Shown here in pieces: positions 9,768-39,563 of a DNA stretch of 64,000 nt. Under the pieces are notes generated by a model. That model was not told the origin of the DNA. It did no database searches and saw nothing but the letters and a program-made list of their open reading frames with translations. This DNA is from an uncultured Verrucomicrobiae bacterium (GTDB lineage: Bacteria; Verrucomicrobiota; Verrucomicrobiia; Chthoniobacterales; JAFAMB01). The position numbers were made by a program, and so were the translations under genes. Every line of letters begins with the position of its first letter. Position 1 is the stretch's first letter. The stretch covers positions 128,001-192,000 of the forward strand of contig CAVXLD010000003.1 in assembly GCA_963762565.1 (NCBI GenBank), given 5' to 3'.

Positions 9768-9920
9768 AAAAGAACGATCGATAACGATTCACAGCGACCG
9801 TGCTGGCCACCGGAACCCGTATGAAAACCCCGTTGACATGCGAAGGCGGCGGCGGTCTGGAGCTGGCGAGCGTGTTGTGATTCAGTTTCAGCCTACAACG
9901 GAATAAAGAGTAAACAGAAT

Positions 9921-10622
9921 ATGAGTGCATTTTCTAACAAAGCGACGGTAGTTCTCGTCCACGGGGCATGGGCGGATGGCAGCAGTTGGAGTCGGGTTGT
10001 GCTGCCTTTGCTGAACGACGGTCTGGAGGTGATATGCGCGCCGATCCCGCTAACGTCTCTATCCGAAGATATTGCGGCCTTAGATCGGGTTCTAGAGCGC
10101 ACTGAAGGTCCAGTATTGCTGGCTGCGCACGCGTATGCCGGTGCGGTAATCGCGGGAACAAAAAACGAGCGAGTCAAATCGTTGGTGTATATCGCAGCGC
10201 TCGCTCCGGATGAGGGCGAGAGCGTGTCTGACGTATTCTTTCGCGAGCCGCCTCATCCACAGGCTCCTCACGTGCAGCCGGATGCGCACGGTTTGATTTG
10301 GATGCCAGACTCGGGGTTTCTGAACGCCTTTGCCCAAAATGCTTCGAAGGAGGTGAAGGCTATAAATACCGCGGTGCAAAGGCCGTTGTCTGTCCGTTGC
10401 ATTCAAGAGCCATCCCCGAAGCCAGGTTGGAGATCGAAGCCTTCCTGGTTCCTGATCGCGACTGAAGACCGTATGATAAATCCAAAGACTCAGCAGTTCA
10501 TGGCTGAACGTATGTCCGCCAAGATCAGGGTGAGAGCGGTCGATCATACTCCGCTCCAGACAGCGCCCGAAGAAGTAGTTGATATCATCCGAGAAGCCGC
10601 CGGCGAAACGCTGATCTCTTAG
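9921..10622 (+). CDS. Alpha/beta fold hydrolase (Abhydrolase_6-like); nucleophile elbow reads AHAYAG
   Basis: VLVHGAWADGSSW, LVYIAALAPD, EDRMI, DH; the usual GHSYGG serine is replaced by Ala. Confidence 0.85.
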   Translation: MSAFSNKATVVLVHGAWADGSSWSRVVLPLLNDGLEVICAPIPLTSLSEDIAALDRVLERTEGPVLLAAHAYAGAVIAGTKNERVKSLVYIAALAPDEGESVSDVFFREPPHPQAPHVQPDAHGLIWMPDSGFLNAFAQNASKEVKAINTAVQRPLSVRCIQEPSPKPGWRSKPSWFLIATEDRMINPKTQQFMAERMSAKIRVRAVDHTPLQTAPEEVVDIIREAAGETLIS

Positions 10623-11457: not shown

Positions 11458-11635
11458 CTTCGTTCTCGTCCTCGTCGTCGTCCTTCCGACTTCGCCAACG
11501 CCTGGTTGTGGAGCGCGCCTCGCTTGCGAGGCCGACTTCGGGAGGTAGGTAACATAGAGCGTGGGCTTCGTCGGACAGGCTGTTCTCGAGTGCGGGCTTG
11601 CGGATCATGGAGTACTGGAGTGTTGGAGTATTGCA
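11458..11635. repeat. Nested repeat: family E (GACGAG-rich) containing C containing D, followed by octamers
   Basis: cgttctcgtcctcgtcgtcgtcc|ttccgacttcgcc..gtggagcgcgcctcgcttgcgaggccgac..ggcttcgtcggacaggctg|ttctcga. Confidence 0.8.
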
Positions 11636-28402: not shown

Positions 28403-28545
28403 GTCCTATAGTCAGGGAGGTTTTTTGTCCCGAAGAGACTACAGGACTCAGCCTGGGGTTTTAACCTGGCTAAAGCCCTGGGTTACGCGATTAACAAATG
28501 CGCCCTGAAAGCACTTCCAACCCCGCCTTATCGGGGTGCAATTCG

Positions 28546-28674
28546 GGGAGGGCGCGTCCTCGCGCGCCGCGAGGACGTGCCACCACCAAGCGGCCTATTT
28601 TCTTCCGGGATCAAAACACGCCCCCGGTTTCGGTCACGATCCGGCAGGTGCCGGGCGAGGACGCGATCCCTCCC
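28546..28674 (+). repeat. Family A element
   Basis: GGGAGGGCGCGTCCTCGCGCGC ... GCGAGGACGCGATCCCTCCC. Confidence 0.8.
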
Positions 28675-28734
28675 GCCTCGTGCGCCTTCAGCATCTCCAA
28701 CCCCGCGTCCGCGGGGTGCTTTTCGGACTTGGCG

Positions 28735-28895
28735 CAATACTCCAATACTCCAACACTCCGCGTGGCCGGATTCGAGGACAGCCTGTCCGCCGTAGCCTAG
28801 AGGCTCCATGTTGCCAACCGCTCGAAGTCGGCCTCGCAAGCGAGGCGCGCTCCACAACCAAGGAGTCGGCGAAGGCGGAAGGACGAGAACGAACG
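28735..28895. repeat. Nested E/C/D repeat with octamers (reverse of 11458-11635)
   Basis: ttcgaggac|agcctgtccgccgtagcc..gtcggcctcgcaagcgaggcgcgctccac..ggcgaaggcgga|aggacgagaacg. Confidence 0.8.
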
Positions 28896-28964
28896 AAGCG
28901 GGAAGATAATGTCTTGGGAAATTTGAAAGAATTGCTCCAGATTGTGTCTATTCCGTAGCGATCC

Positions 28965-29417
28965 ATGAAAGACAAACTCATCATCGTCGTCGATCTTGGT
29001 CTAGTCAGGGCGTATCGAATTGAGCTGAGTCCACAGCGAACTCCGCGCCTACAACAGCTCCAGCAGGTGGTGCTGGATGAGGCGCATAGCCGGATAAAGG
29101 ATCGAGTCACGGATTTTGCGGGCAGACATGGATCACCAACGCAAAAAAGTCGGAGTGCGCCAAAGGCGGATGACCAAAATCTTAAGCTCGAATCCAAACG
29201 ACGTCTGATTCGTCAGATTGCTGTCAGGATCACCCAGATCATCCAGCAGAATGCCAAGAACGGATGTTGGTTGGCTGCGCCGAAGGAAATCAATTTGCAA
29301 ATACTGAACGAATTACCTCCGGCGGCCCGAGAGCGGATCCAGAAGACTGTGCCATGTGATTTTACCAAGCTTAGTCCCGCGGAGGTGCTGGAACACTTTC
29401 TGGAACGGACTGTGTGA
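28965..29417 (+). CDS. Host attachment protein family (baeRF-like)
   Basis: LIIVVDLGLVRAY...VTDFAGR...LAAPKEI...DFTKL. Confidence 0.75.
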   Translation: MKDKLIIVVDLGLVRAYRIELSPQRTPRLQQLQQVVLDEAHSRIKDRVTDFAGRHGSPTQKSRSAPKADDQNLKLESKRRLIRQIAVRITQIIQQNAKNGCWLAAPKEINLQILNELPPAARERIQKTVPCDFTKLSPAEVLEHFLERTV

Positions 29418-29435
29418 CGAGCGTCCGCTCGTCAC

Positions 29436-29730
29436 GTGAGAAGTGAGAGGTGAGAAGTGGGGGGTTGCAAAATCGTTCTCATCCTCGTCGTCGTCCTTCC
29501 GCCTTCGCCGACTCCTTGGTTGTGGAGCGCGCCTCGCTTGCGAGGCCGACTTCGAGCGGTTGGCAACATAGACCGTTGGCTACGGCGGACAGGCTGTCCT
29601 CGAATACGCGTCCCAGCTTCAAACGCATTGAATTTCCCCAGGTCCATTCCCAGCGCGCCGTCCTGGGTTCGTACCGTGGGAAGAACGGATTTTTCGAGGA
29701 CGAGGACGACGACGAAGGACGAGGACGATT
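29436..29730. repeat. GTGAGAR heptamers plus family E inverted pair with nested C/D
   Basis: aatcgttctcatcctcgtcgtcgtcc..cggacaggctgtcctcgaa ... ttcgaggacgaggacgacgacgaaggacgaggacgatt. Confidence 0.8.
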
Positions 29731-29758
29731 TCGGCCTATTACAGGCCTCAAAAGCTGC

Positions 29759-29791
29759 TGACATAGGGCTGTCATCGTGGCCCTCTACTGT
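29759..29791 (+). promoter_or_regulatory. Candidate WYL-activated promoter
   Basis: TGACA-N6-TGTCAT-N10-TACTGT. Confidence 0.6.
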
Positions 29792-29865
29792 GGCGAAGCG
29801 AGCGATTGGACGGGAATAAATAGCCCCAGTCGTTCGTATAACACCTTGAGGATCAGGAGACAGCC

Positions 29866-30252
29866 ATGATGAAAGAAGACGCAACAATACTAGTGGGCCG
29901 GCAGCGAAAGCGTGAGAATTTGAACGGCCTCTTCGTATTGTGGCTATTGATATTAGTACTCGCGTTGGTCGGCGCCATCGTAGCCGCGAGCAGCAACGCA
30001 CCAGTGATCTGGATGTTGGCGTGGCCAGCGCCGTTGATTGTGATCTTTACAGCCGCCAGGTTTATCGGTGAAGGGTTCCACACGCGAGATGGGGTCCTGG
30101 TTTTCGGACGGCCGATGACAACACATCCAAATGTTCCGCTCGCCGGCGCCGTTGATTCGGCAACGAGCCGTCATGTTGTTGAGGGACGGAAGGAATTAGA
30201 GAAACGCTGGCACGAACAAAAGCGAAAGTTTGGCCCATACCTAAGGCAATGA
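29866..30252 (+). CDS. Hypothetical membrane protein (2 TM)
   Basis: caggag RBS; two hydrophobic segments. Confidence 0.7.
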   Translation: MMKEDATILVGRQRKRENLNGLFVLWLLILVLALVGAIVAASSNAPVIWMLAWPAPLIVIFTAARFIGEGFHTRDGVLVFGRPMTTHPNVPLAGAVDSATSRHVVEGRKELEKRWHEQKRKFGPYLRQ

Positions 30253-30324
30253 GCACCATGTAGAAAGATGGTTACCCGAAGAACGGATTCGGAGTGCCGC
30301 TAAAGCTTGTTTGAACCCGGATCC

Positions 30325-30507
30325 GGAGGCGCGCGTCCCCGCGCGCTTTTTTTTTGCGCGTGCCATCAGACGAAAGGCCTCGGTTGGTTCTCGGTTTGGA
30401 ACCTGCCGCGCTTCGGAAACGGATCGCGAGGATCCGACGTCGCCAACATCTCGAAGAAAAAGAGCCTCAAAACAGAAGGCTATGTCGGACAGGCAGCGAT
30501 CCCTCCC
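30325..30507 (+). repeat. Family A element with nested family C insertion
   Basis: ggatcgcgagga[tccgacgtcgcc...ggctatgtcggacaggca]gcgatccctccc. Confidence 0.8.
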
Positions 30508-30543
30508 CTTGCAAGAGACCGCACTCCACACTAGTGGAACGTC

Positions 30544-31698
30544 GTGGTTTGTATAGATAACGCCCGGGTAATTCTCGAGGATCAGGTGCTGCAGTCAGGA
30601 TGGGTGAGCTTTGAGTCTGGTTTCATTGCAGGAATTGGGCAAAGTGCTCCCATCCAGACGGACGAGGATATCGACGCCCGGGGTCTTTTTTTGTCCCCTG
30701 GGTTCATCGATCTCCATATTCATGGTGGACGGGGGTTTGATTTTCTTGACGCAACTCCGGAGGGATTCGCTGACGCGGCCTCATTTCATCTGACTGGCGG
30801 CACCACATCGCTCTGCCCAACCGCAGCCACTGCGACCTACGAGAGGTTCGAGTCCGTGATCTCGCGGTGGCAGCAGGCCCAATCGCTAACCCGTTGCCGG
30901 CTCTTCCCGCTACACTTGGAGGGGCCGCATTTGGCTCGGGGGAAAGCGGGGGCGCAAGATCCCAGCTTGATGAGACCGCCCACTAAGGCCGACACTCAGT
31001 GGGTCCTTACCCGTGCGTCCGCGATCTCTCAGATCACGATAGCGCCGGAGTTACCAAACGCCTTAGAGTTTATTTCGGCAGCCTCTAACGCCGGCATTCG
31101 CATGAGTGCAGGCCACACCGAAGCGACTGGAGAGGAGGTTCAAAAGGCGGTTGAAGCTGGTCTCACGAAGGTGACCCATCTCTTTAATGCGATGTCGTCA
31201 GCTACAAAAAAGGGGATTTTTCGGCAGCCTGGCGTGCTGGAATATGCTTTGGCCGACGAGAGCCTGTTTTGCGAGTTGGTTGCCGATGGGTTTCACGTTC
31301 TGCCCACGCTCACGCGGATGGCGTACAACGCAAAAGGACCCGATCGAATTGCGTTGATTACCGACGCATTGGCTGGGGCAGGGCTGCCGGTTGGCTATGA
31401 ATTCCGCCTGGGCCGCCTCGACTGCAAAGTCAGTGACGGCTTCGGGATGCTGGCGGATGGATCCGCCTTGGCCGGAAGCCTGGCGCGAACCATCGATCTG
31501 GTCCGATTTATGGTGCAAGTGGTCGGTCTTCCGCTGTTCGAAGTGGTTCGGATGGCGAGCCTGACTCCCGCTCGGGTCCTGGGTAAGGAAAAGCTGTTCG
31601 GCTCTATCGCTAGAGCGAAAAACGCTGATTTAGTCCTGTTCGATGACGAGTTCAAAGTACACGGGGTCTGGGTCGGCGGGAAACGGGTGGTTGGATAG
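30544..31698 (+). CDS. nagA: N-acetylglucosamine-6-phosphate deacetylase
   Basis: PGFIDLHIHG, HLEGP, GHT, THLFNAM, ADGFH, ITDA, LAGS. Confidence 0.93.
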   Translation: MVCIDNARVILEDQVLQSGWVSFESGFIAGIGQSAPIQTDEDIDARGLFLSPGFIDLHIHGGRGFDFLDATPEGFADAASFHLTGGTTSLCPTAATATYERFESVISRWQQAQSLTRCRLFPLHLEGPHLARGKAGAQDPSLMRPPTKADTQWVLTRASAISQITIAPELPNALEFISAASNAGIRMSAGHTEATGEEVQKAVEAGLTKVTHLFNAMSSATKKGIFRQPGVLEYALADESLFCELVADGFHVLPTLTRMAYNAKGPDRIALITDALAGAGLPVGYEFRLGRLDCKVSDGFGMLADGSALAGSLARTIDLVRFMVQVVGLPLFEVVRMASLTPARVLGKEKLFGSIARAKNADLVLFDDEFKVHGVWVGGKRVVG

Positions 31699-31707
31699 CG
31701 GTTGGCT

Positions 31708-32290
31708 GTCGTCCTCGTCCTTCCGCCTTCGCCGACTCCTTATTGAGGAGCGCGCCTCGCTTGCGAGGCCGACGTAGAGCGGGTGGCGATATAGAGAGTG
31801 GGCTATGGCGGACAAAGCTGTCCTCGAAAAGACGTGCCGCGTTGATCCTCCGAGCGTGTCCGCGAAGCCGCGACCTGGAGGGGAGCCGCTTTGTAAGATG
31901 GCAGGTCTAGATTGTTGGCAGCCACCGAAAGCCTTCGGGGTTAGACAGGCGGCTCCCGGGAATAACCCAGCGTACCATTTGTACCCAACGCTACCTGACC
32001 GTTGCCCGTCCAAATCGCTGCAAAGCCTGGAGCCGTTCCCGGGAGCCGCTTGCTGCGAACGGATAGACCTAGCGACCTACAAAGCGGCTCCCCTCCACGG
32101 CGCTCGGTTTTTCATTGTCAAGGGGCTGGATTACGTTGGGGGCGTGCAACCGTTTTTTCGAGGACAGCTTGTCCGCCATAGCCGGCTCTCTGTATCGCTA
32201 CCCGCGCTACGTCGGCCTCGCAAGCGAGGCGCGCTCCACAATAAGGAGTCGGCGAAGGCGGAAGGACGACGACGAGCACGAGGACGATTT
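31708..32290. repeat. About 580-bp multilayer foldback (E/C/D arms, F core)
   Basis: Arms about 31708-31830 and 32155-32275 are near-perfect inverted repeats; inner tggaggggagccgctttgta/tacaaagcggctcccctcca pair. Confidence 0.85.
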
Positions 32291-32317
32291 CGGCCTTTTA
32301 CGGGCCTTAAAACCTCC

Positions 32318-32350
32318 TGACATAGGGTTGTCATGGCTGCGTGATAGCCT
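32318..32350 (+). promoter_or_regulatory. Candidate WYL-activated promoter
   Basis: TGACA-N6-TGTCAT-N10-TAGCCT. Confidence 0.6.
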
Positions 32351-32419
32351 GCTTCTGTTGTTGATTGGGCCAGTCGTGCCGATCAGCCCAATTCGAAAAA
32401 CTGAACCAACAGGAGCTAC

Positions 32420-32815
32420 ATGACTACTATCACCAGATCAGGGGTATTTGAAGGTCGGAAGGCGTATCTAAAGGAACCGCGGATCGGTTCGTCGCTTTGC
32501 GTTACCGATTTCTTGTCCGTACGCGATCGGCGGATCGCTCAAATCGATGAGAGCCCGAGAGCGCGCGAAAATGAGTTGGCGATGCTCAGAGCCGCGAGTC
32601 AGCGAAGGAACCGGGCAGAGGTACTTGGCCCGCTAGAGCGGTTTGCTTATTCGCTGATTTCCGCTGCCGCCCTAACCGTCGTCTTGGTTGGGATTGTAAG
32701 CCTGGGAGATTCCTCTCGGAGGGGTGCTGGCTTTGCCCCTTCAGCTCAGGCGGCCAATGAAGTGCTCAGTGCGTATACCCGCCAATCTGCTGCAGACCAG
32801 ACTCGTCCAAACTAA
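32420..32815 (+). CDS. Hypothetical single-pass membrane protein
   Basis: caggag RBS; TM YSLISAAALTVVLVGIVSL; immediately upstream of the WYL gene. Confidence 0.7.
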   Translation: MTTITRSGVFEGRKAYLKEPRIGSSLCVTDFLSVRDRRIAQIDESPRARENELAMLRAASQRRNRAEVLGPLERFAYSLISAAALTVVLVGIVSLGDSSRRGAGFAPSAQAANEVLSAYTRQSAADQTRPN

Positions 32816-32837
32816 AAAAGAAGTTAAGTTATGACGA

Positions 32838-33782
32838 GTGAATCGCATCGACAGACTGGTCGCTATCCTGATCCATCTCCAAGGGCGCAGGGTGACCCGC
32901 GCCGAGGATATTGCCGATGAGTTTGCCACCAGTATTCGGACGGTTTATCGGGACATTGCCGCTTTGGCGGAAGCGGGTGTCCCGATCGTCGGTGAGGCCG
33001 GCGTCGGGTACAGCATCGTAAGAGGGTATCATCTTCCACCTGTGCATTTCACTACCGAAGAAGCGACCGCACTGATCACAGCCAATCTGCTGATGGATCG
33101 CTTCGCCGACAAGTCGTTGATGTCGCCGATGGGTTCTGCTTTGGCGAAGATCCGAGCCGTTTTGCCGCCGGATCATCAGGACCATATCACTCGGCTCGAG
33201 AGCCGGATGTCGCTGCCGACCAGTCCGCGGCCTACGCGGTCAGCCAGTCTCTTCGCCATCCAAAAGGCCTTGGCCGAACGCACCGTGTTGCGAATTTCTT
33301 ATTGTGGCGCCGGCAAGGCCGAATCTTTCCCACGCCAGATCGAACCCATGGGGCTGACCTACTATGGAGATCGCTGGCATTTGATTGCTTGGTGCCGCAT
33401 GCGCAAGGATTATAGGGATTTCCGGACAGACCGAATTCAGGAGCTAGCGGTTGTGCCTGAACGCTTCGAACCGCGCACGAACTTTTCGCTCGACGAATTC
33501 CTGCAGCGATCGGACCAGACAAGGACGACGGTAACAGCCGTAATCCGAGTCGACGCAGTGACTGCCGAGCGGGTTCGTAAGGAAGCGCCATTCAAGATTG
33601 TGCGAGAAGCGCGCGCGGAAAATGACGTCACCTTCGTGATCGAGGCTGGTAACTGGGATTGGTATATGGGCTGGTTTCTCTCGTTTGGATCTCGCGTTAC
33701 GATCATCGAACCGGATGCGTTCCGCGTGCGGTTGTTTGAGGTAGCACAGGCGACTGCGAACCATCACGGCGGGGCGGTGTGA
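32838..33782 (+). CDS. HTH-WYL-WCX transcriptional regulator (YafY/PafB-like)
   Basis: RIDRL, SIRTVYRDI, EPMGL....WHLIAWC..R...R.FRTDRI, C-terminal WFLSFG...IEP. Confidence 0.93.
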   Translation: MNRIDRLVAILIHLQGRRVTRAEDIADEFATSIRTVYRDIAALAEAGVPIVGEAGVGYSIVRGYHLPPVHFTTEEATALITANLLMDRFADKSLMSPMGSALAKIRAVLPPDHQDHITRLESRMSLPTSPRPTRSASLFAIQKALAERTVLRISYCGAGKAESFPRQIEPMGLTYYGDRWHLIAWCRMRKDYRDFRTDRIQELAVVPERFEPRTNFSLDEFLQRSDQTRTTVTAVIRVDAVTAERVRKEAPFKIVREARAENDVTFVIEAGNWDWYMGWFLSFGSRVTIIEPDAFRVRLFEVAQATANHHGGAV

Positions 33783-33783
33783 A

Positions 33784-33903
33784 GGGAGGGCGCGCGTCCT
33801 CGCGCGCTGGAAACGGGGTGCAACATATTAGGCGTCGATTAACCCTGGGTTCGGAAGACGCTCGGCTTCGCGAACCACTGATCGCGAGGGCGCGATCCCT
33901 CCC
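33784..33903 (+). repeat. Family A element between convergent genes
   Basis: Family A termini; internal sequence shared with 18794 and the 35870 array. Confidence 0.85.
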
Positions 33904-34802
33904 TACGCGCGCCGGGCGAGGAAATAGACACCCAGGTTCACCGCGACAAAGACGAATGCATATCCGGCGGCGAGCCAGCAGAGAACTCGCTTTACTGCGG
34001 CATCAGCTGACTCGTTAACCAGCCTGGCGGGAACGCTGACAATTTGGGCTCCGACAATATCGTTAAGCTTCCAACCAAAACCGTTATCTTTTCCGTAGAT
34101 CTTGGTCATTTCGTGCGGGGCATCCTCGGCGTTACCGTGGCAAGCGAGACAGCTCTGACTATCGACGCGGATCGGCGCGCTATAATAGAGTGATGGACCC
34201 TCAGGAGTGTCCCGATAACCAACGACCTCAGTTTTAGAAGGTGTCTTGTTAAAGATATTCACTATGTCAGCCTCCCAGGCCACAGTCCTATCGCGCGGGT
34301 TGGTTGGGTTAAGCGTTGCTTCTTTATAGGAATAATCAGGATATCGTTTTCGGAAGTAATTGAAGGCTTCGGTTGCGGCGTAAAATGGAATCGATTGGGC
34401 AGCAAACTCTGGCTCCTGGACACTGCGAGGTTGTTGTTTAACGTTTTGCACGATTTGCTCTGAAAGGACCTGGAGAGTCTGTCTCTCCTTTGCGTTGGAA
34501 AGCCCGGAAATCGCTTGTTGTAAGGCCTGTGGGAACTGCGTGTTGAGGACCTCATTCAGGGTTTTTACCCCCTCAGCAACTCTGGCTTCCTCGTGGGTCA
34601 ACAGAGGTTCGATTTGCTCGGTCGTATACACGCGTGAAGCCTTGGCGGTTTCCATCATGAGCTGAGCATTTTCAAGCACCTGCTGTTCGGCGAGTTGACG
34701 GAACTCTCTCTGGACGAAATAGGCGGTTGCACCAAGACAAAGGACCAAAACCGGAATGAAACCCGCGTTAAATATTAGTACCCGTGGCAAGCTCGTGGTC
34801 AC
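33903..34802 (-). CDS. DUF3365 / Tll0287-like c-type heme sensor domain membrane protein
   Basis: YKEATLNPTNPRDR, CLACH heme motif, YGKDNGFGWKLNDIVGAQIVSVP, flanking TMs. Confidence 0.88.
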   Translation of the reverse strand: MTTSLPRVLIFNAGFIPVLVLCLGATAYFVQREFRQLAEQQVLENAQLMMETAKASRVYTTEQIEPLLTHEEARVAEGVKTLNEVLNTQFPQALQQAISGLSNAKERQTLQVLSEQIVQNVKQQPRSVQEPEFAAQSIPFYAATEAFNYFRKRYPDYSYKEATLNPTNPRDRTVAWEADIVNIFNKTPSKTEVVGYRDTPEGPSLYYSAPIRVDSQSCLACHGNAEDAPHEMTKIYGKDNGFGWKLNDIVGAQIVSVPARLVNESADAAVKRVLCWLAAGYAFVFVAVNLGVYFLARRA

Positions 34803-34924
34803 ATCTGTTAGGTCCCTTCACGAAGCAAAAAGATCAAGATTGATCTTTTAACATTACCGCCATCGCAAATGTCGATGGGATTTTCGGGCGATCCAGAATA
34901 GGGTAACTCTGCAAGGATATAGCA

Positions 34925-35764
34925 ATGGACCAAATATCAGCTCAGAACACAGGGAAGGGGTTCTCGTTTCGCTTGGCCGCAGTTGACTTGGACGGGACTT
35001 TGCTTGGACCGGACAAACAGGTTGGGCCTGAGAACGCGGCAGCGGTTCGACGGCTACGGGACCGCGGGGTAGTCGTGATCATCGCATCTGGTCGCCGCCA
35101 TCAGAACAGTGTTCGTTTCCAGCGGGAATTGGGACTGACCGGCCCGATTATTGCATGCCAGGGCGGCCTGATTCGAGACGGGGAAAGCGGGAATGTGGTT
35201 GAAGCTCATTTCCTGCCTCAGAGCGTGACCCGTCAGATTCTCAGCGATGCGGAGAAGAACGACATTCAGACGATCTATTATCACCTGGACCACTTATACG
35301 TTGCCGAGCGTCATAATCGTTGGATTGATCTCTACGAGTCGCGGGTCGGTGAGCGAGCCGAGATTTTGCCGGCTCTGGAGCAACTGGACGGTCGTAGGGC
35401 GCTAAAGCTTGTTTGGTATGGAGACCCGCTCCTCCTAGTCAAGATTAGGCCCGAAATGTCGGCCCATTATTCGGACAAAGTGGACGTCCTTGCAACCGAG
35501 AAGGAGAACCTGGAGTTCATGCCTCGGGGAATCAGTAAGGCGACAGCCCTGGCCAAAGTGGCGGCCGAGTATGGGGTCCGCCAGGAAGAAGTTTTGGCGT
35601 TCGGTGACGGAGAAAATGATGTCGCAATGCTGACTTGGGCAGGGCTAGGTGTTGCTATGGGGCACGGTAACCAAGCCGCCATTAAAGCCGCGAAACGGGT
35701 GAGTCCACCCGGTCCACCGGCGAGCGCGTTCGCGCGCGCGGTGGATGCGTTGTTCGACTGTTAA
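34925..35764 (+). CDS. Cof-type HAD-IIB hydrolase
   Basis: DLDGTLL, ASGR, SKA, FGDGENDVAML. Confidence 0.93.
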   Translation: MDQISAQNTGKGFSFRLAAVDLDGTLLGPDKQVGPENAAAVRRLRDRGVVVIIASGRRHQNSVRFQRELGLTGPIIACQGGLIRDGESGNVVEAHFLPQSVTRQILSDAEKNDIQTIYYHLDHLYVAERHNRWIDLYESRVGERAEILPALEQLDGRRALKLVWYGDPLLLVKIRPEMSAHYSDKVDVLATEKENLEFMPRGISKATALAKVAAEYGVRQEEVLAFGDGENDVAMLTWAGLGVAMGHGNQAAIKAAKRVSPPGPPASAFARAVDALFDC

Positions 35765-35807
35765 TAAACAGAGCGTGTTGCTTCACCCAGTCGGAGGGGA
35801 GCCGCAT

Positions 35808-36289
35808 GGCTTTGCGAACGACGGATCGCGAGGACGCGATCCCTCCCTTGCGCGGCATCGCCCAAGACCGGGAGGGCGCGCGTCCTCGCGCGCTGGGAAG
35901 GCGGTGCAACATAAGAGGCGTCGATTAACCCTGGGTTTGGAACACGCTGGGCTTTGCGAACGGCGGATCGCGAGGACGCGGTCCCTCCGTTGCGCGGCGG
36001 CGCCGAAACCCGGGAGGGCGCGCGTCCTCGCGCGCTGGGAAGGCGGTGCAACAAATGAGGCCTCGATTAACCCTGGGTTTGGAACACGCTGGGCTTTGCG
36101 AACGGCGGATCGCGAGGACGCGATCCCTCCCTTGCGTGGCATCGCCCAAGACCGGGAGGGCGCGCGTCCTCGCGCGCTGGGAAGGCGGTGCAACATAAGA
36201 GGCGTCGATTAACCCTGGGTTTGGAACACGCTGGGGTTTGCGAACGGCGGATCGCGAGGACGCGATCCCTCCCTTGCGCGGCATCGCCC
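35808..36289 (+). repeat. Tandem array of family A units, 142-bp period (3 full units plus a partial)
   Basis: GGGAGGGCGCGCGTCCTCGCGCGC at 35870, 36012 and 36154. Confidence 0.95.
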
Positions 36290-36316
36290 TCAATGGCCTT
36301 TTTCTTGACGAGTTGA

Positions 36317-36332
36317 TTCTACTATAATAGAA
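36317..36332. promoter_or_regulatory. Putative autoregulatory operator of the XRE-cupin gene
   Basis: TTCTACTATAATAGAA near-palindrome downstream of TTGACG (36305). Confidence 0.5.
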
Positions 36333-36337
36333 ATAAA

Positions 36338-36931
36338 TTGCATATCGGAAACAAGACAGTGAAAGCTAATCAGCCCGGAATTGAGCAGAGGATCGCCGCC
36401 CAGTTGAAGCAGCGTCGCCTGGCTAACGGGCTCTCTCTGGCGGATTTAGCGGAACGATCCGGTGTTAGCCGGGCCATGATCTCGAAAGTAGAACGCTCTG
36501 CTGCCAGCCCGACGGCTGCTCTGCTGGGGCGCCTTTGTAATGGGCTCGGTCTGACGCTCTCCTCTTTAATCGCCAATGCCGAAGAATCGGCTTCGCCGCT
36601 GGTTAGAGCCAAAGACCAAACCCGCTGGCAAGATCCTGCCACCGGGCTGATCAGAACGATGATTTCGCCTGATCTGGCGAATTCGCCGGTTGAGATCGTT
36701 CGTATCGATCTCCCTCCAGGCGCCAGCGTGAGTTACGATCCTCAACGTTATTTACGTTATGACCAGCACGTTGTGCCTATCAAAGGCCACCTCCATCTGG
36801 GCGTTGGGGACAAAGAATATCAGCTAGGAACCTGGGACTGTCTGTTAATGCCGACGAATTTAACCCTCCACTTCCATAATAGAGGACCGGTTAGCTGCCG
36901 CTATCTGGTCATTGTGAAAAAAGCGACATGA
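36338..36931 (+). CDS. XRE family HTH regulator with cupin domain
   Basis: LSLADLAERSGVSRAMISKVER..SPTAALLGRL; C-terminal cupin. Confidence 0.92.
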   Translation: MHIGNKTVKANQPGIEQRIAAQLKQRRLANGLSLADLAERSGVSRAMISKVERSAASPTAALLGRLCNGLGLTLSSLIANAEESASPLVRAKDQTRWQDPATGLIRTMISPDLANSPVEIVRIDLPPGASVSYDPQRYLRYDQHVVPIKGHLHLGVGDKEYQLGTWDCLLMPTNLTLHFHNRGPVSCRYLVIVKKAT

Positions 36932-37428
36932 AAATAGAAATCCGGCCCGCGGAGACCAATGATTTGGATGCGATGCTCGCCATCTACAACGACGCGATTA
37001 TCAACACAACGGCTGTGTATGATTATCAGCCGCGAACAAGCGATGCGCAGCGGCAATGGTTCGAAACTAAGCGGGCACAAAGCTTACCGATTTTTGTCGC
37101 CCATGATGGCGCCAGGATAATCGGGTTCGGTTCTTTTGGACCGTTTCGTCCCTGGCCGGCCTATCAGTACACAGTTGAAAACTCGCTTTACGTCGATTCT
37201 GGTTACCGGCGAAAGGGCGCCGGGACGGCGTTGCTAGGATCGCTCCTAAGCGCGGCTCAGGCGGCGGGCTACCACGCCATGGTGGCTGGAATCGATGCTA
37301 CCAATGAAGCGAGTCTCGCTCTCCACCGAAAGGCCGGTTTCGATCCAATCGCTCACTTTCGTGAGATCGGTTGGAAGTTCGAACGCTGGCTGGATTTGGT
37401 GTTTATGGAGAAGATTTTGAGCCCGTAA
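36928..37428 (+). CDS. GNAT acetyltransferase (phosphinothricin/methionine-sulfoximine acetyltransferase-like)
   Basis: IYNDAIINTTA, YTVENSLYV, RRKGAG, NEASLALH, KFERWLD; overlaps the upstream stop. Confidence 0.92.
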   Translation: MKIEIRPAETNDLDAMLAIYNDAIINTTAVYDYQPRTSDAQRQWFETKRAQSLPIFVAHDGARIIGFGSFGPFRPWPAYQYTVENSLYVDSGYRRKGAGTALLGSLLSAAQAAGYHAMVAGIDATNEASLALHRKAGFDPIAHFREIGWKFERWLDLVFMEKILSP

Positions 37429-37692
37429 CCGCGACCACCCAATCGTTTACATGCGAGATGAATTTGAGGATGCGATGGGCGGTGGTTAGCGCTGGGTTAC
37501 TCCCGGGAGGCGCCTGCTAGATACTCAAAGAGCTGCCAGCCGGTAAAGCGCCTCCCCTCCACTGTCGCCGGGTTTCTGCCGCATTTGCTATCTGCTATTT
37601 GCTATTTGTCATTGCCCGCGTTGCGGGTCGCCTCGCCCCACCAAAGAGGCGGCGATCCGCCCTACAAATCACTTGTCACCAATCACCTCTCA

Positions 37693-38676
37693 CTAAACTT
37701 GTTTCCACGGTTCCGGGACCCATTCAAAGCCTTGATCTTTCTTGCGGATATGGCCGATGCCGGGGAAGGGGAGGTGATAACCAATTACCCTGGTGCGCGC
37801 CGCAGCTAGCTTTTCGAAGACGCTTTTGCGGGTTGCAGCTGCCTGCTCAGGATCGGAGTCAACCCCAATGGTCCAGTCCGGATTATGAAACATAATGACG
37901 TAGTTATGGGCGAGGTCGACGATATGAACCAGCTCGTCGTCACCGGATTGGATATGGAGGATGGTATGACCGGCGGTATGGCCAGGCGCCAATTCTGTCG
38001 TGACACCTTCTACTATTTCGTTTCCGGCCTGAAACTTGTGGAATCGGGATTCGAGTGTTAACAAGGTATCTTGAGCACGCTGAGCATACAGTTTTCTATC
38101 TTCCTCTTTCATTAAAGTCTTGGAGAGGTCCGGCTCTTTCTGGATCCAGAAGTCCCACTCCGTTTCGTTGATGAAATGTTGGGCCGATGGAAAGACCGGT
38201 TTGTTGTCGGTGCCGAGCAATCCCCCGTGATGATCCGGGTGAACATGCGATAATAGAACCGCTGTGATTTGATTGGGACGATAACCGGCAACGGCGAGCT
38301 GGGCTAACAAGTGACCAGCAGTGGTGGGCAACAACTTTCCGAACCCGGTGTCGCAGAGCAGTACATCTTTTCCGTTATCGATCAGAACCACATTGTAGTA
38401 GTTCAGAACATGGTCGGTCGGCAGAAAATCGGCTTCCAGAGCGGAATTGAGTTCATCAGGGGTCGCCTCCGACGCCCAGAAAGGCTGGACTGGTTGAAAA
38501 ATCTTATAGCCGTCGTTGAAAACCGTGAGCTGGAAGTCGCCGACATTGAATCGGTAATAACCTGGGTTGGACCGGTTCGGTATCATCGCCGCTTCTGCCC
38601 GGGACTGTAGGCCGATGGCGGCTGCGCCGAGGCCGAGCAAGCCGATCGCGTGTCTTCGCGAGAGATTGGGATTCAT
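37693..38676 (-). CDS. Tat-exported metallo-beta-lactamase fold hydrolase
   Basis: LSRRH twin-arginine signal; SHVHPDHHGG, APGHTAGH, GYHLPFPGIG. Confidence 0.92.
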   Translation of the reverse strand: MNPNLSRRHAIGLLGLGAAAIGLQSRAEAAMIPNRSNPGYYRFNVGDFQLTVFNDGYKIFQPVQPFWASEATPDELNSALEADFLPTDHVLNYYNVVLIDNGKDVLLCDTGFGKLLPTTAGHLLAQLAVAGYRPNQITAVLLSHVHPDHHGGLLGTDNKPVFPSAQHFINETEWDFWIQKEPDLSKTLMKEEDRKLYAQRAQDTLLTLESRFHKFQAGNEIVEGVTTELAPGHTAGHTILHIQSGDDELVHIVDLAHNYVIMFHNPDWTIGVDSDPEQAAATRKSVFEKLAAARTRVIGYHLPFPGIGHIRKKDQGFEWVPEPWKQV

Positions 38677-38987: not shown

Positions 38988-39563
38988 TCAGGCCTCCCCA
39001 ATTCGCTCCCAAATCCCTTCGTAACGAACGGTGAGCCCAGTCTCATCGACATCGATTAGGGCGGTAAAACCACTGGCGAGGCTCCGGTAGCGATAGGTCC
39101 GGTCGGACAAACGTTCATAAGACTGGCGGGCGTAGACTATCTCTAGCGACGGGAACCGAATCCACGCGGCGGCGATTTCTTCCGATTGGCCGACAGCGAG
39201 GTTAAGGCGCTTGATGGGTAAACTATTCGTGATCGGTGACAGCTCAAGGTCAACGTCGAGGCAGCCGGTCAAGGTGTCGATAGCACCCGAGCCATGGACA
39301 CTCCAATTGCTATCGCTGTCCACGGAGAGCGACAAAGCCGACCGTTCTAGACCAAGACGTTGTTCGATTGAGACGGTTCGGGTCCGCCAATCGGCGTCGC
39401 ATTCGATCCGGTAATGAACCTCTAACGGAGCGTTCTCATGGATGGCGACAATTGTGCCGGTCAACTCGACGCCCAAAGTCAATCCCCGGGCGACAGCATA
39501 CTCGAGGCTGTTATTGTCCATGATCCGCCGCCAGCAAAGCGCGCGATCAGTTAATGCCGTCAT
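38988..39563 (-). CDS. Putative glycolipid-binding domain protein
   Basis: YRIECDADWRT, GCLDVDLELSPITNSLPIKRL, QSYERL, VDETG. Confidence 0.85.
   Translation of the reverse strand: MTALTDRALCWRRIMDNNSLEYAVARGLTLGVELTGTIVAIHENAPLEVHYRIECDADWRTRTVSIEQRLGLERSALSLSVDSDSNWSVHGSGAIDTLTGCLDVDLELSPITNSLPIKRLNLAVGQSEEIAAAWIRFPSLEIVYARQSYERLSDRTYRYRSLASGFTALIDVDETGLTVRYEGIWERIGEA

Follow-up and report, generated by a model that had tools for sequence, protein, structure and literature searches.

In a 64,000-nucleotide stretch from the genome of an uncultured Verrucomicrobiae bacterium (contig CAVXLD010000003.1, positions 128,001 to 192,000; hereafter the window), two genes for small membrane proteins are preceded by the same palindromic box, which is followed at a fixed distance by a -10-like hexamer, and the second of these genes lies directly before the gene of a regulator with a helix-turn-helix (HTH), a WYL and a WCX domain. 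Considering the anatomy of the two promoters, the recurrence of the box in other phyla and its proximity to WYL genes there, we regard both boxes as probable operators of the adjacent HTH-WYL-WCX protein, each forming the upstream half of an activator-dependent promoter. Judging from sequence comparison, it is very likely that the regulator and its targets constitute a module with a real conserved promoter box.

Two promoters with a common palindromic box

The 18-base box CTGACATAGGG(C/T)TGTCAT occurs exactly twice in the window, once at each of the promoters that we call P1 and P2 (Table 1), and contains the palindrome TGACA-N6-TGTCA, that is, GAC-N8-GTC. When the 17-mer of the box was searched with up to three mismatches, two matches were found in the window against 0.19 expected, and TGTCA-N11-TANNNT was found four times against 0.70 expected, a number that none of 100 shuffles reached. 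A preliminary description of this DNA had reported the box, the N10 spacer and TAnnnT at both sites, a CAGGAG ribosome site before both open reading frames (ORFs), and the position of the second ORF directly upstream of the HTH-WYL gene; direct reading confirmed all the coordinates, both ribosome sites and a gap of 22 nt between gene 2 and the regulator gene, which is probably co-transcribed with gene 2 from P2.

A -35 hexamer at the proper distance is absent at P1 and P2, where the hexamer located 17 nt upstream of each -10 element falls within the spacer of the box, and a simple -35/-10 scan of positions 29400-34000 found no sigma-70-type promoter. Assuming that transcription starts 7 nt past the -10 element, box P1 occupies approximately -39 to -24. 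Two further candidate sites were rejected. The first, TGACC-N6-TGTCA-C-N10-TAGTTT at 39252-39220 (-), has one arm mismatch and the right TAnnnT spacing, but it lies inside the ORF 38988-39563 and is probably due to chance; the second, a half-site match at 32116-32137, lies within a repeat region and has no left arm.

A contig from a verrucomicrobial metagenome-assembled genome (locus L032) is syntenic to positions 28912-37854 of the window, with around 78% nucleotide identity. Both boxes and both TAnnnT elements are kept in L032, and in a four-way alignment the box and TA...T are invariant and the N10 spacers differ, whereas the upstream flank of P1 in L032 is unrelated to that of P1 in the window. 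Conservation of the motif upstream of orthologues, which the preliminary description had proposed to examine, therefore holds in L032 despite the diverged spacers and P1 flank. Since L032 has both boxes with an unrelated P1 flank, the box is ancestral at both sites, and the copying of the flank came later in the lineage of the window.

The alignment of P1 and P2 from the window and L032 also shows GATTGG and CAGGAG columns common to both promoters. The P1 leader is predicted to fold with -22.1 kcal/mol (z = -3.0), and the P2 leader more weakly (z = -1.2 in the window and -2.2 in L032). In both predicted leaders GAUUGG lies in the 5' arm of the leading stem-loop (29797-29840 and 32362-32395 in the window, 1871-1912 and 4076-4112 in L032). 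The P1 stem-loop of the window differs from that of L032 by one arm change, from a G-U to an A-U pair, and a second small hairpin at P1 overlaps the start of the ribosome site. Rfam 15 gave no match at gathering score in the whole window.

The two target genes had been described as encoding apparently unrelated small membrane proteins, and this is borne out by a BLASTP E value of 31 between them and by their hydropathy, with hydrophobic segments at residues 22-40 and 45-63 following a basic N-terminus in gene 1 (ORF29866), and one hydrophobic segment at residues ~75-93 in gene 2 (ORF32420). ORF29866 has 26 homologue clusters (46-95% identity) and ORF32420 has 84 (48-93% identity), for which the only names available are those of hypothetical proteins of Chthoniobacterales or Verrucomicrobia; from this conservation, both are real, conserved genes. 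The conserved motifs of ORF29866 are WPAPL and the stretch ARFIxEGxHxRDGVLVLGR (RFIxEGxHxRDG). In ORF32420, an N-terminal SRSGV...KEPRxGSSLCVTDF is conserved and a variable tail ends in an invariant C-terminal RPN (QTRPN in most aligned homologues). ORF29866 of the window lacks ~30 internal residues (an acidic region, GPSGRIEL) that are found in most of the 154-174-aa homologues, and this short form is also present in one 95%-identical metagenomic cluster.

Neither small ORF has a match in Pfam, NCBIfam or PADLOC, and the best feature score for each of them in the ESM Atlas was 0.87, under the level of 0.9 taken for more than a lead, with heterogeneous structural rows. An exhaustive profile search of 1.84 billion proteins yielded 39 representatives of the ORF32420 family (79-196 aa), and a scan of 37 representatives found no Pfam domain at cut-off, the single weak match being YCII (0.0077, below cut-off). 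The AlphaFold2 (AF2) model of ORF32420, built from 35 sequences, was too poor for a fold search, with a predicted local distance difference test score (pLDDT) of 59 and a predicted template modelling score of 0.22.

The box, its probable regulator and the genes behind it in other genomes

The scan of genomes for the motif that the preliminary description had suggested was run on species-representative public genomes with the exact 18-mer CTGACATAGGGNTGTCAT, and recovered at least 119 loci with at least 121 sites and a fixed promoter spacing; the counts given below refer to the listed loci and sites. According to their titles, from which the phyla were read, so that the split between taxa is that of a sample, ~110 loci belong to Bacteroidota, four to Verrucomicrobiota (L032, L045, L052 and L108) and one to Fibrobacterales, and four are labelled Proteobacteria or Myxococcota; one Rhodothermaceae and one Balneola locus were counted with the Bacteroidota, where we presume them to belong. 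By our own arithmetic for a uniform 17-mer, ~70 matches would be expected by chance over the whole collection; the listed sites are clearly not of this kind, given the profile of their flanks. Across the 121 sites, T is found at +28 in 102, A or T at +29 in 115, T at +32 in 107, at +33 in 119 and at +34 in 98, and G at +35 in 93, and on the other side C at -3 in 93 and T at -2 in 102. The resulting consensus is TGTCAT-N10-T(A/T)nnTTTG, with the box in place of the -33 element. We take TAnnTTTG to be the Bacteroidetes -7 promoter box. All seven verrucomicrobial sites, namely the two of the window and, among the matches listed, the two of L032 and those of L045, L052 and L108, read TGTCAT-N10-TAnnnT. 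An A at +40 in 76 of the sites gives a weak hint of a start ~7 nt past the -10 element.

At the single free position of the box, 62 sites have C, 56 have T and 3 have G. Near some exact boxes there are extra sites with other spacers, namely TGACA-TACCGT-TGTCA in L056 and the equivalents with TACTGT in L059 and AACGGT in L037, and these differences suggest that the arms matter more than the spacer. The extra sites (L056 9948-9963 (+), L059 9947-9962 (+) and L037 9893-9908) lie 53-54 nt (L056, L059) or 108 nt (L037) upstream of the exact box and are possible tandem operators; in L056 and L059 they stand between the WYL gene and its target. In a Rfam search of 20 box-bearing loci all matches were far under the gathering score, and none was to an RNA family of Bacteroidota.

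The first downstream ORFs of the listed loci, 79 in number, were scored by Pfam. DinB or DinB_2 accounts for 23 of them and DUF1569 for three, followed by GyrI-like/Cass2 (8), glyoxalase (5), SnoaL (5), DUF1761 (4), AHSA1 (3, plus one weak Polyketide_cyc2), OmdA (3), EVE (3), Peptidase_S51 (3) and UvrB (2). Ten ORFs belong to families that occur once each, among them the WYL gene, DJ-1/PfpI, DoxX_2 and an efflux protein of the outer membrane; two or three of these single-family sites (an aminotransferase, a peptidase M1) look like chance sites. No family was assigned to six, among them the two L032 orthologues of the window ORFs; searches of the listed loci with hidden Markov models found homologues of the two small ORFs in L032 only. 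Kinship of the small-ORF families with DUF1761, the membrane protein behind the box at four loci, was considered and rejected (profile-profile probability 0.2%). Among 36 incomplete ORFs from short loci, at E ≤ 0.01, there were 11 DinB-type, three GyrI-like, two glyoxalase, two AHSA1, one SnoaL, one UvrB N-terminus and two others, with 14 matching nothing. These kinds of genes (mostly DinB-superfamily, GyrI-like, glyoxalase, SRPBCC, EVE and uvrB) would fit a genotoxic-stress regulon. Proteins that bind DNA-damaging natural products or render them inactive occur in several of the families, which we offer as a lead and not as a result. At three Mucilaginibacter/Bacteroidota loci the box stands before uvrB (L006 ~9850-10018 (-), L077 10001-10127 (+) and L110 301-430 (+)), with leaders of 108-149 nt that are unusually long and look mutually conserved.

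Adjacency to the regulator was assessed with phmmer, using the window WYL protein against all ORFs of the loci, and was counted on the 79 long-flank loci. In 27 of them a WYL homologue encoded on the same strand as the box (E 1e-27 to 1e-72) has its end at a distance of -9 to +157 nt upstream, and in several the TGA inside CTGACA is its stop codon. One locus (L068) has a divergent homologue 79 nt off, and three (L037, L007 and L032) have the WYL gene 50-753 nt downstream of the box, like the window. Only three homologues are more distant (2.4, 2.8 and 7.1 kb), and a near-exact box adjoins the one in L028 (2.8 kb). The remaining 45 loci have no WYL homologue in their flanks, which is what additional promoters of a regulon would show.

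The regulator of the window shows the three-domain architecture in Pfam (HTH_11 5.7e-12, WYL 7e-20, WCX 9.3e-13), and its AF2 model has three folded blocks (pLDDT 77). A sequence search of the PDB placed PafBC first (1.7e-16), ahead of PafB (7e-14), DriD (3.8e-7), CapW (1e-6) and BrxR (2.5e-6), and a fold search with the model returned DriD (6e-17), PafC and PafB (2.5e-16 and 2.5e-15), CapW (5e-10) and BrxR (3e-9). The HTH is near-invariant in 34 homologues from the listed loci, all of which have the recognition helix SIRTVYRD in common, and R34, T35, Y37, R38 and D39 of this helix are invariant in our alignment A4; a near-invariant HTH fits an invariant operator. Taken together with at least 119 loci and a fixed 10-nt spacing, the adjacency in 27 of the 79 loci supports what the preliminary description had put forward, namely that the neighbouring HTH-WYL protein has its operator in this box, within a promoter laid out like that of PafBC. 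The palindrome, the gene adjacency and the invariant recognition helix suggest that the regulator would bind the box through its HTH as a dimer.

The homologues from the listed loci comprise full-length (~315 aa) and WCX-less (~230 aa) forms. The latter HTH-WYL proteins (~225-237 aa; L012, L022, L043, L063, L069, L071, L055 and L028) have the same recognition helix and the same box, and are paired mainly with DUF1761 or DUF1569 genes.

Proposed mechanism, alternatives and neighbouring features

In the mechanism that we propose, a homodimer of the regulator would bind the palindrome TGACA-N6-TGTCA, centred near -31.5, with the promoter-proximal arm TGTCA (~-28 to -24) placed where the HTH of PafB reads the GTC of the mycobacterial '-26 element', and the distal arm at the -35 position. 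The regulator would replace the missing -35 contact and recruit RNA polymerase to a -10-only promoter, as PafBC, DriD and SiwR do. The trigger would be the binding by the WYL domain of single-stranded DNA (ssDNA) arising from DNA damage. The output of P1 would be the monocistronic, terminator-closed gene of the two-segment membrane protein, and that of P2 the operon of the single-pass membrane protein and the regulator (32420-33782), which would produce positive feedback.

The choice of ssDNA or damage as the signal is suggested by conserved arginines and by the kinds of genes behind the box elsewhere. In PafB, R181, R204, R208, R211 and R214 are required for ssDNA binding (PMC11804915). In the alignment from the PDB search these residues correspond to R166, R189, R193, R196 and R199 of the regulator. 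The first three show no variation in alignment A4, where R196 reaches at least 90% conservation.

The anatomy of the promoters points to activation. With the same regulator and operator, the WYL dimer could also act as a repressor that covers the promoter and is released on binding ssDNA, as for CapW and BrxR. A repressed promoter would still need its own -35 or -33 element, and none is present at the window promoters, the box occupying that place in the 121 listed sites; moreover, the strict single-nucleotide phasing between box and -10 element across phyla is that of activators touching RNA polymerase, whereas a steric block needs none. It is true that repressors of the WYL family have been described whose palindromic operators lie in their own promoters (PMC11662680, PMC9122588, PMC9122601), that CapW and BrxR are detectable relatives of the regulator by sequence and fold, that the box covers a region which RNA polymerase must occupy, and that P2 drives the regulator's own gene, autoregulation being typical of repressors. 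Given that the solved activators outscore the solved repressors by sequence and by fold, we judge repression to be unlikely.

It is a good deal less probable that another factor binds the box, or that the box is a special polymerase or sigma element, with the WYL gene as a mere frequent neighbour or fellow target. At 48 of the 79 long-flank loci there is no WYL homologue within 800 nt of the box, as this explanation would have it; boxes that lack a WYL neighbour are, however, also what a multi-promoter regulon predicts. In 27 loci the end of a WYL homologue is no more than 160 nt from the box, with only three homologues elsewhere in ~1.3 Mb of flanks. Bacteroidetes average ~2.1 WYL proteins per genome (PMC6789036), so that this adjacency is not expected by chance. 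In addition, the GAC...GTC palindrome is of the type read by WYL-family HTH domains, and the adjacent homologues vary as little in their HTH as the box does in its sequence.

The weakest alternative takes the likeness of the promoters for a piece of local duplication or of a dispersed repeat, without regulatory meaning. The preliminary description had noted that shared upstream sequence pointed to a contribution of local duplication, and it was right in this: a direct repeat of 60 nt (29716-29775 and 32275-32334) is 88% identical, and blastn extends it to 73 nt including the box (29703-29775 and 32263-32334, 89%). Because of this duplication the two boxes of the window are not mutually independent, and independence comes from the other genomes. 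The genome is repeat-rich, and the upstream part of the duplicate belongs to a family of ~130-nt dispersed repeats found by blastn in five copies in the window, each made of a GC-rich palindrome GGCCTCGCAAGCGAGGCGCGCTCC and a CGAGGA-type tail; however, only the copy at 32151-32290 is followed by a box and the other four are boxless, so that the motif is not just a part of a repeat present at many unrelated loci, as the preliminary description had considered. Since, furthermore, P1 of L032 has the box despite its unrelated upstream flank, the identical 18-mer stands before a promoter box at at least 119 loci of other phyla, and the variety of downstream genes disfavours the listed loci being one mobile element, an explanation by duplication alone is hardly credible.

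Several observations weigh against an activator responding to ssDNA as described here. The scan required the exact 18-mer, and 17 positions of the box are therefore conserved by construction, and the source genome itself is not among the at least 119 loci listed. The half-sites are spaced as GAC-N8-GTC here, compared with CGAC-N7-GTCG in DriD and TAGGAC-N7-GTCCTA in SiwR. The tyrosine of the WYL motif (Y196 in PafB) is a histidine (H181) in the regulator, and other WYL proteins bind other ligands, for instance c-di-GMP (PMC11880434). WYL regulators such as CapW and BrxR can repress, and an operator lying across the -35 region would suit a repressor as well. Lastly, neither target in the window is a DNA-repair or detoxification gene, and no library, profile search or model gives any role for either membrane protein.

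As to the function of the two membrane proteins, the roles of division inhibitor or defence effector proposed in the preliminary description are possibilities suggested by analogy, and neither protein matches a PADLOC model. By analogy with DriD-DidA and DdaA-AciT, the likeliest guess, and at best a doubtful one, is that damage induces them to slow the division of the cell or the growth of its envelope. An even wider picture, which we put forward tentatively and hold to be rather improbable as a whole, is that one WYL subfamily, with a near-frozen 18-bp operator in place of the -35/-33 element, may control a response to genotoxic stress that is independent of LexA and common to Bacteroidota and Verrucomicrobiota. 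In the present soil lineage of Verrucomicrobiota this circuit would have been rewired to two small membrane proteins peculiar to the lineage, a new family pair of damage-induced inhibitors of division or envelope growth, one of them in a positive-feedback operon with the regulator.

What has been established about WYL activators to date (PafBC, DriD, SiwR and DdaA) comes from Actinobacteria and Proteobacteria. Our literature search found no operator or regulon for a WYL regulator of Bacteroidota or Verrucomicrobiota, nor the box in any paper (no occurrence of its 14-mers). If the reading of the boxes as operators of the activator is true, it provides a ready-made, testable operator for a very widespread regulator subfamily and a predicted stress regulon of Bacteroidota (DinB-superfamily, GyrI-like, glyoxalase, SRPBCC, EVE and uvrB genes). 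It would also set beside the half-site promoter of PafBC a version with a full palindrome and a homodimer, bearing on the question of how generally WYL proteins replace the -35 contact, and would name two conserved, unannotated membrane proteins as outputs of the circuit, a starting point for their function.

The surroundings of the module are rich in repeats and differ from L032 in part. The pair of inverted repeats 28805-28892 and 29485-29572 (97%) brackets a small gene, and the pair 31709-31815 and 32169-32275 (93%) brackets 353 nt with a further inverted repeat and looks like a miniature inverted-repeat transposable element. A tandem array at 35808-36289 has 3.4 copies of a 142-nt unit (92% matches), of which single related copies at 33717-33918, 28545-28683 and 30328-30422 follow several genes, including one directly past the stop codon of the WYL gene. 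The ORF 28965-29417 (+), of 150 aa, matches Host_attach (1.1e-14) and the bacterial eRF1-like family 12 (6.4e-08); inverted copies of the dispersed repeat stand on either side of it and are missing around its L032 orthologue. A Tll0287-like gene with a CxxCH motif (33903-34802 (-), 8.2e-40) is present in the window and absent from L032, corresponding to an indel of ~1.1 kb between the WYL gene and a HAD hydrolase gene.

Table 1. Positions of the promoter elements, genes and repeats discussed in the text (window coordinates).
Feature	Position	Strand	Remarks
P1 upstream flank	29703-29757	+	CGAGGA-type repeat tail, short GGCCT...AGGCC hairpin, A-tract; local duplicate
Box P1, 18-mer CTGACATAGGGCTGTCAT	29758-29775	+	C-TGACA-TAGGGC-TGTCA-T; proposed operator of a WYL dimer
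Box P1, 17-mer core TGACATAGGGCTGTCAT	29759-29775	+	
P1 -10-like hexamer TACTGT	29786-29791	+	10 nt 3' of TGTCAT
Predicted leader of gene 1	29797-29865	+	69 nt; 5'-proximal stem-loop (arm GAUUGG) and CAGGAG
P1 ribosome site CAGGAG	29854-29859	+	ATG of gene 1 at 29866
Target gene 1, ORF29866	29866-30252	+	128 aa, two hydrophobic segments, both ends predicted cytoplasmic
Intrinsic terminator of gene 1	30325-30355	+	11-pair GC stem, then T run; ends the monocistronic unit
P2 upstream flank	32263-32316	+	repeat tail, hairpin, A-tract; conserved in P2 of L032
Box P2, 18-mer CTGACATAGGGTTGTCAT	32317-32334	+	C-TGACA-TAGGGT-TGTCA-T; proposed operator of a WYL dimer for the ORF32420-WYL operon
Box P2, 17-mer core TGACATAGGGTTGTCAT	32318-32334	+	
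P2 -10-like hexamer TAGCCT	32345-32350	+	10 nt 3' of TGTCAT
P2 ribosome site CAGGAG	32410-32415	+	ATG of gene 2 at 32420
Target gene 2, ORF32420	32420-32815	+	131 aa, single-pass membrane protein, basic N-terminal part
HTH-WYL-WCX regulator gene	32838-33782	+	314 aa, GTG start 22 nt past the stop of gene 2
NagA-like amidohydrolase gene	30544-31698		between units 1 and 2
Dispersed repeat copies	11460-11589 (-), 28771-28892 (+), 29470-29604 (-), 31709-31834 (-), 32151-32290 (+)		

Relation to known WYL systems

More distant by sequence and fold than the solved activators are CapW and BrxR, repressors of operons of the defence systems CBASS and BREX, which share with the regulator of the window the domain family and palindromic operators, CapW also sensing ssDNA. 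They differ in being repressors beside defence systems, and no defence model matches the ORFs neighbouring the window regulator.

DriD of Caulobacter (targets didA and others) and DdaA of Acinetobacter (targets aciT and others) are homodimeric WYL activators switched on by ssDNA, with a palindrome over a missing -35 element. The DriD site, CGAC-N7-GTCG (PMC13010146), overlaps the absent -35 at a constant distance from the -10 (PMC13004042). DriD is the best fold match of the window regulator, whereas its sequence similarity is weak, and the GAC and GTC cores of the DriD/DdaA type of site are one base closer than those of the window box. The outputs of these systems include a cell-division inhibitor, to which the window proteins may be likened by size and membrane topology alone. 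DidA is a small membrane protein.

SiwR of Mycolicibacterium smegmatis is homodimeric and binds ssDNA; by way of a 19-bp palindrome that extends over the region between -35 and -10, it activates adjacent DinB-superfamily genes on genotoxic stress (PMC10693628). Its palindrome, TAGGAC-N7-GTCCTA as read from the oligonucleotides for electrophoretic mobility shift assays in supplementary file 1 of that work, differs from TGACA-N6-TGTCA in the window; GAC...GTC cores are nevertheless common to DriD, SiwR and the window box, with eight bases between them here and seven in the others. Similar to SiwR, the window system has a single-gene regulator of a presumed homodimer type and a putative palindromic operator between -35 and -10, and Bacteroidota relatives of the window regulator adjoin DinB, DinB_2 and glyoxalase genes, the 79 downstream genes including 26 of the DinB, DinB_2 or DUF1569 families and five glyoxalases. 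In contrast, the targets in the window are two membrane proteins without a family, and SiwR is divergent from its targets. SiwR orthologues are reported in Actinobacteria only (PMC10693628).

PafBC, the 'sigma adaptation' regulator of mycobacteria and other actinobacteria, has the same HTH-WYL-WCX composition and is the best sequence match among solved structures. Its in-vivo motif is tGTCgg(N10)tA(N3)T, as the preliminary description had given it, and the HTH of PafB contacts -23 to -28, the GTC being read by two arginines, at promoters with no -35 (PMC8635444). TGTCAT-N10-TAnnnT in the window has the same geometry, a GTC-containing hexamer and no -35, and the arginines of the ssDNA site are conserved in the window regulator. 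PafBC, however, is a heterodimer of two paralogues acting on the single half-site tGTCgg, whereas the window has one WYL gene and a full palindrome, which implies a homodimer with both HTHs on the DNA; the two systems are found in different phyla with different target genes, and identity to the window regulator is ~20% in the fold alignment. Because of the single WYL gene and the two-armed palindrome, we do not classify the window regulator as a PafBC, but as a protein that would work like PafBC.

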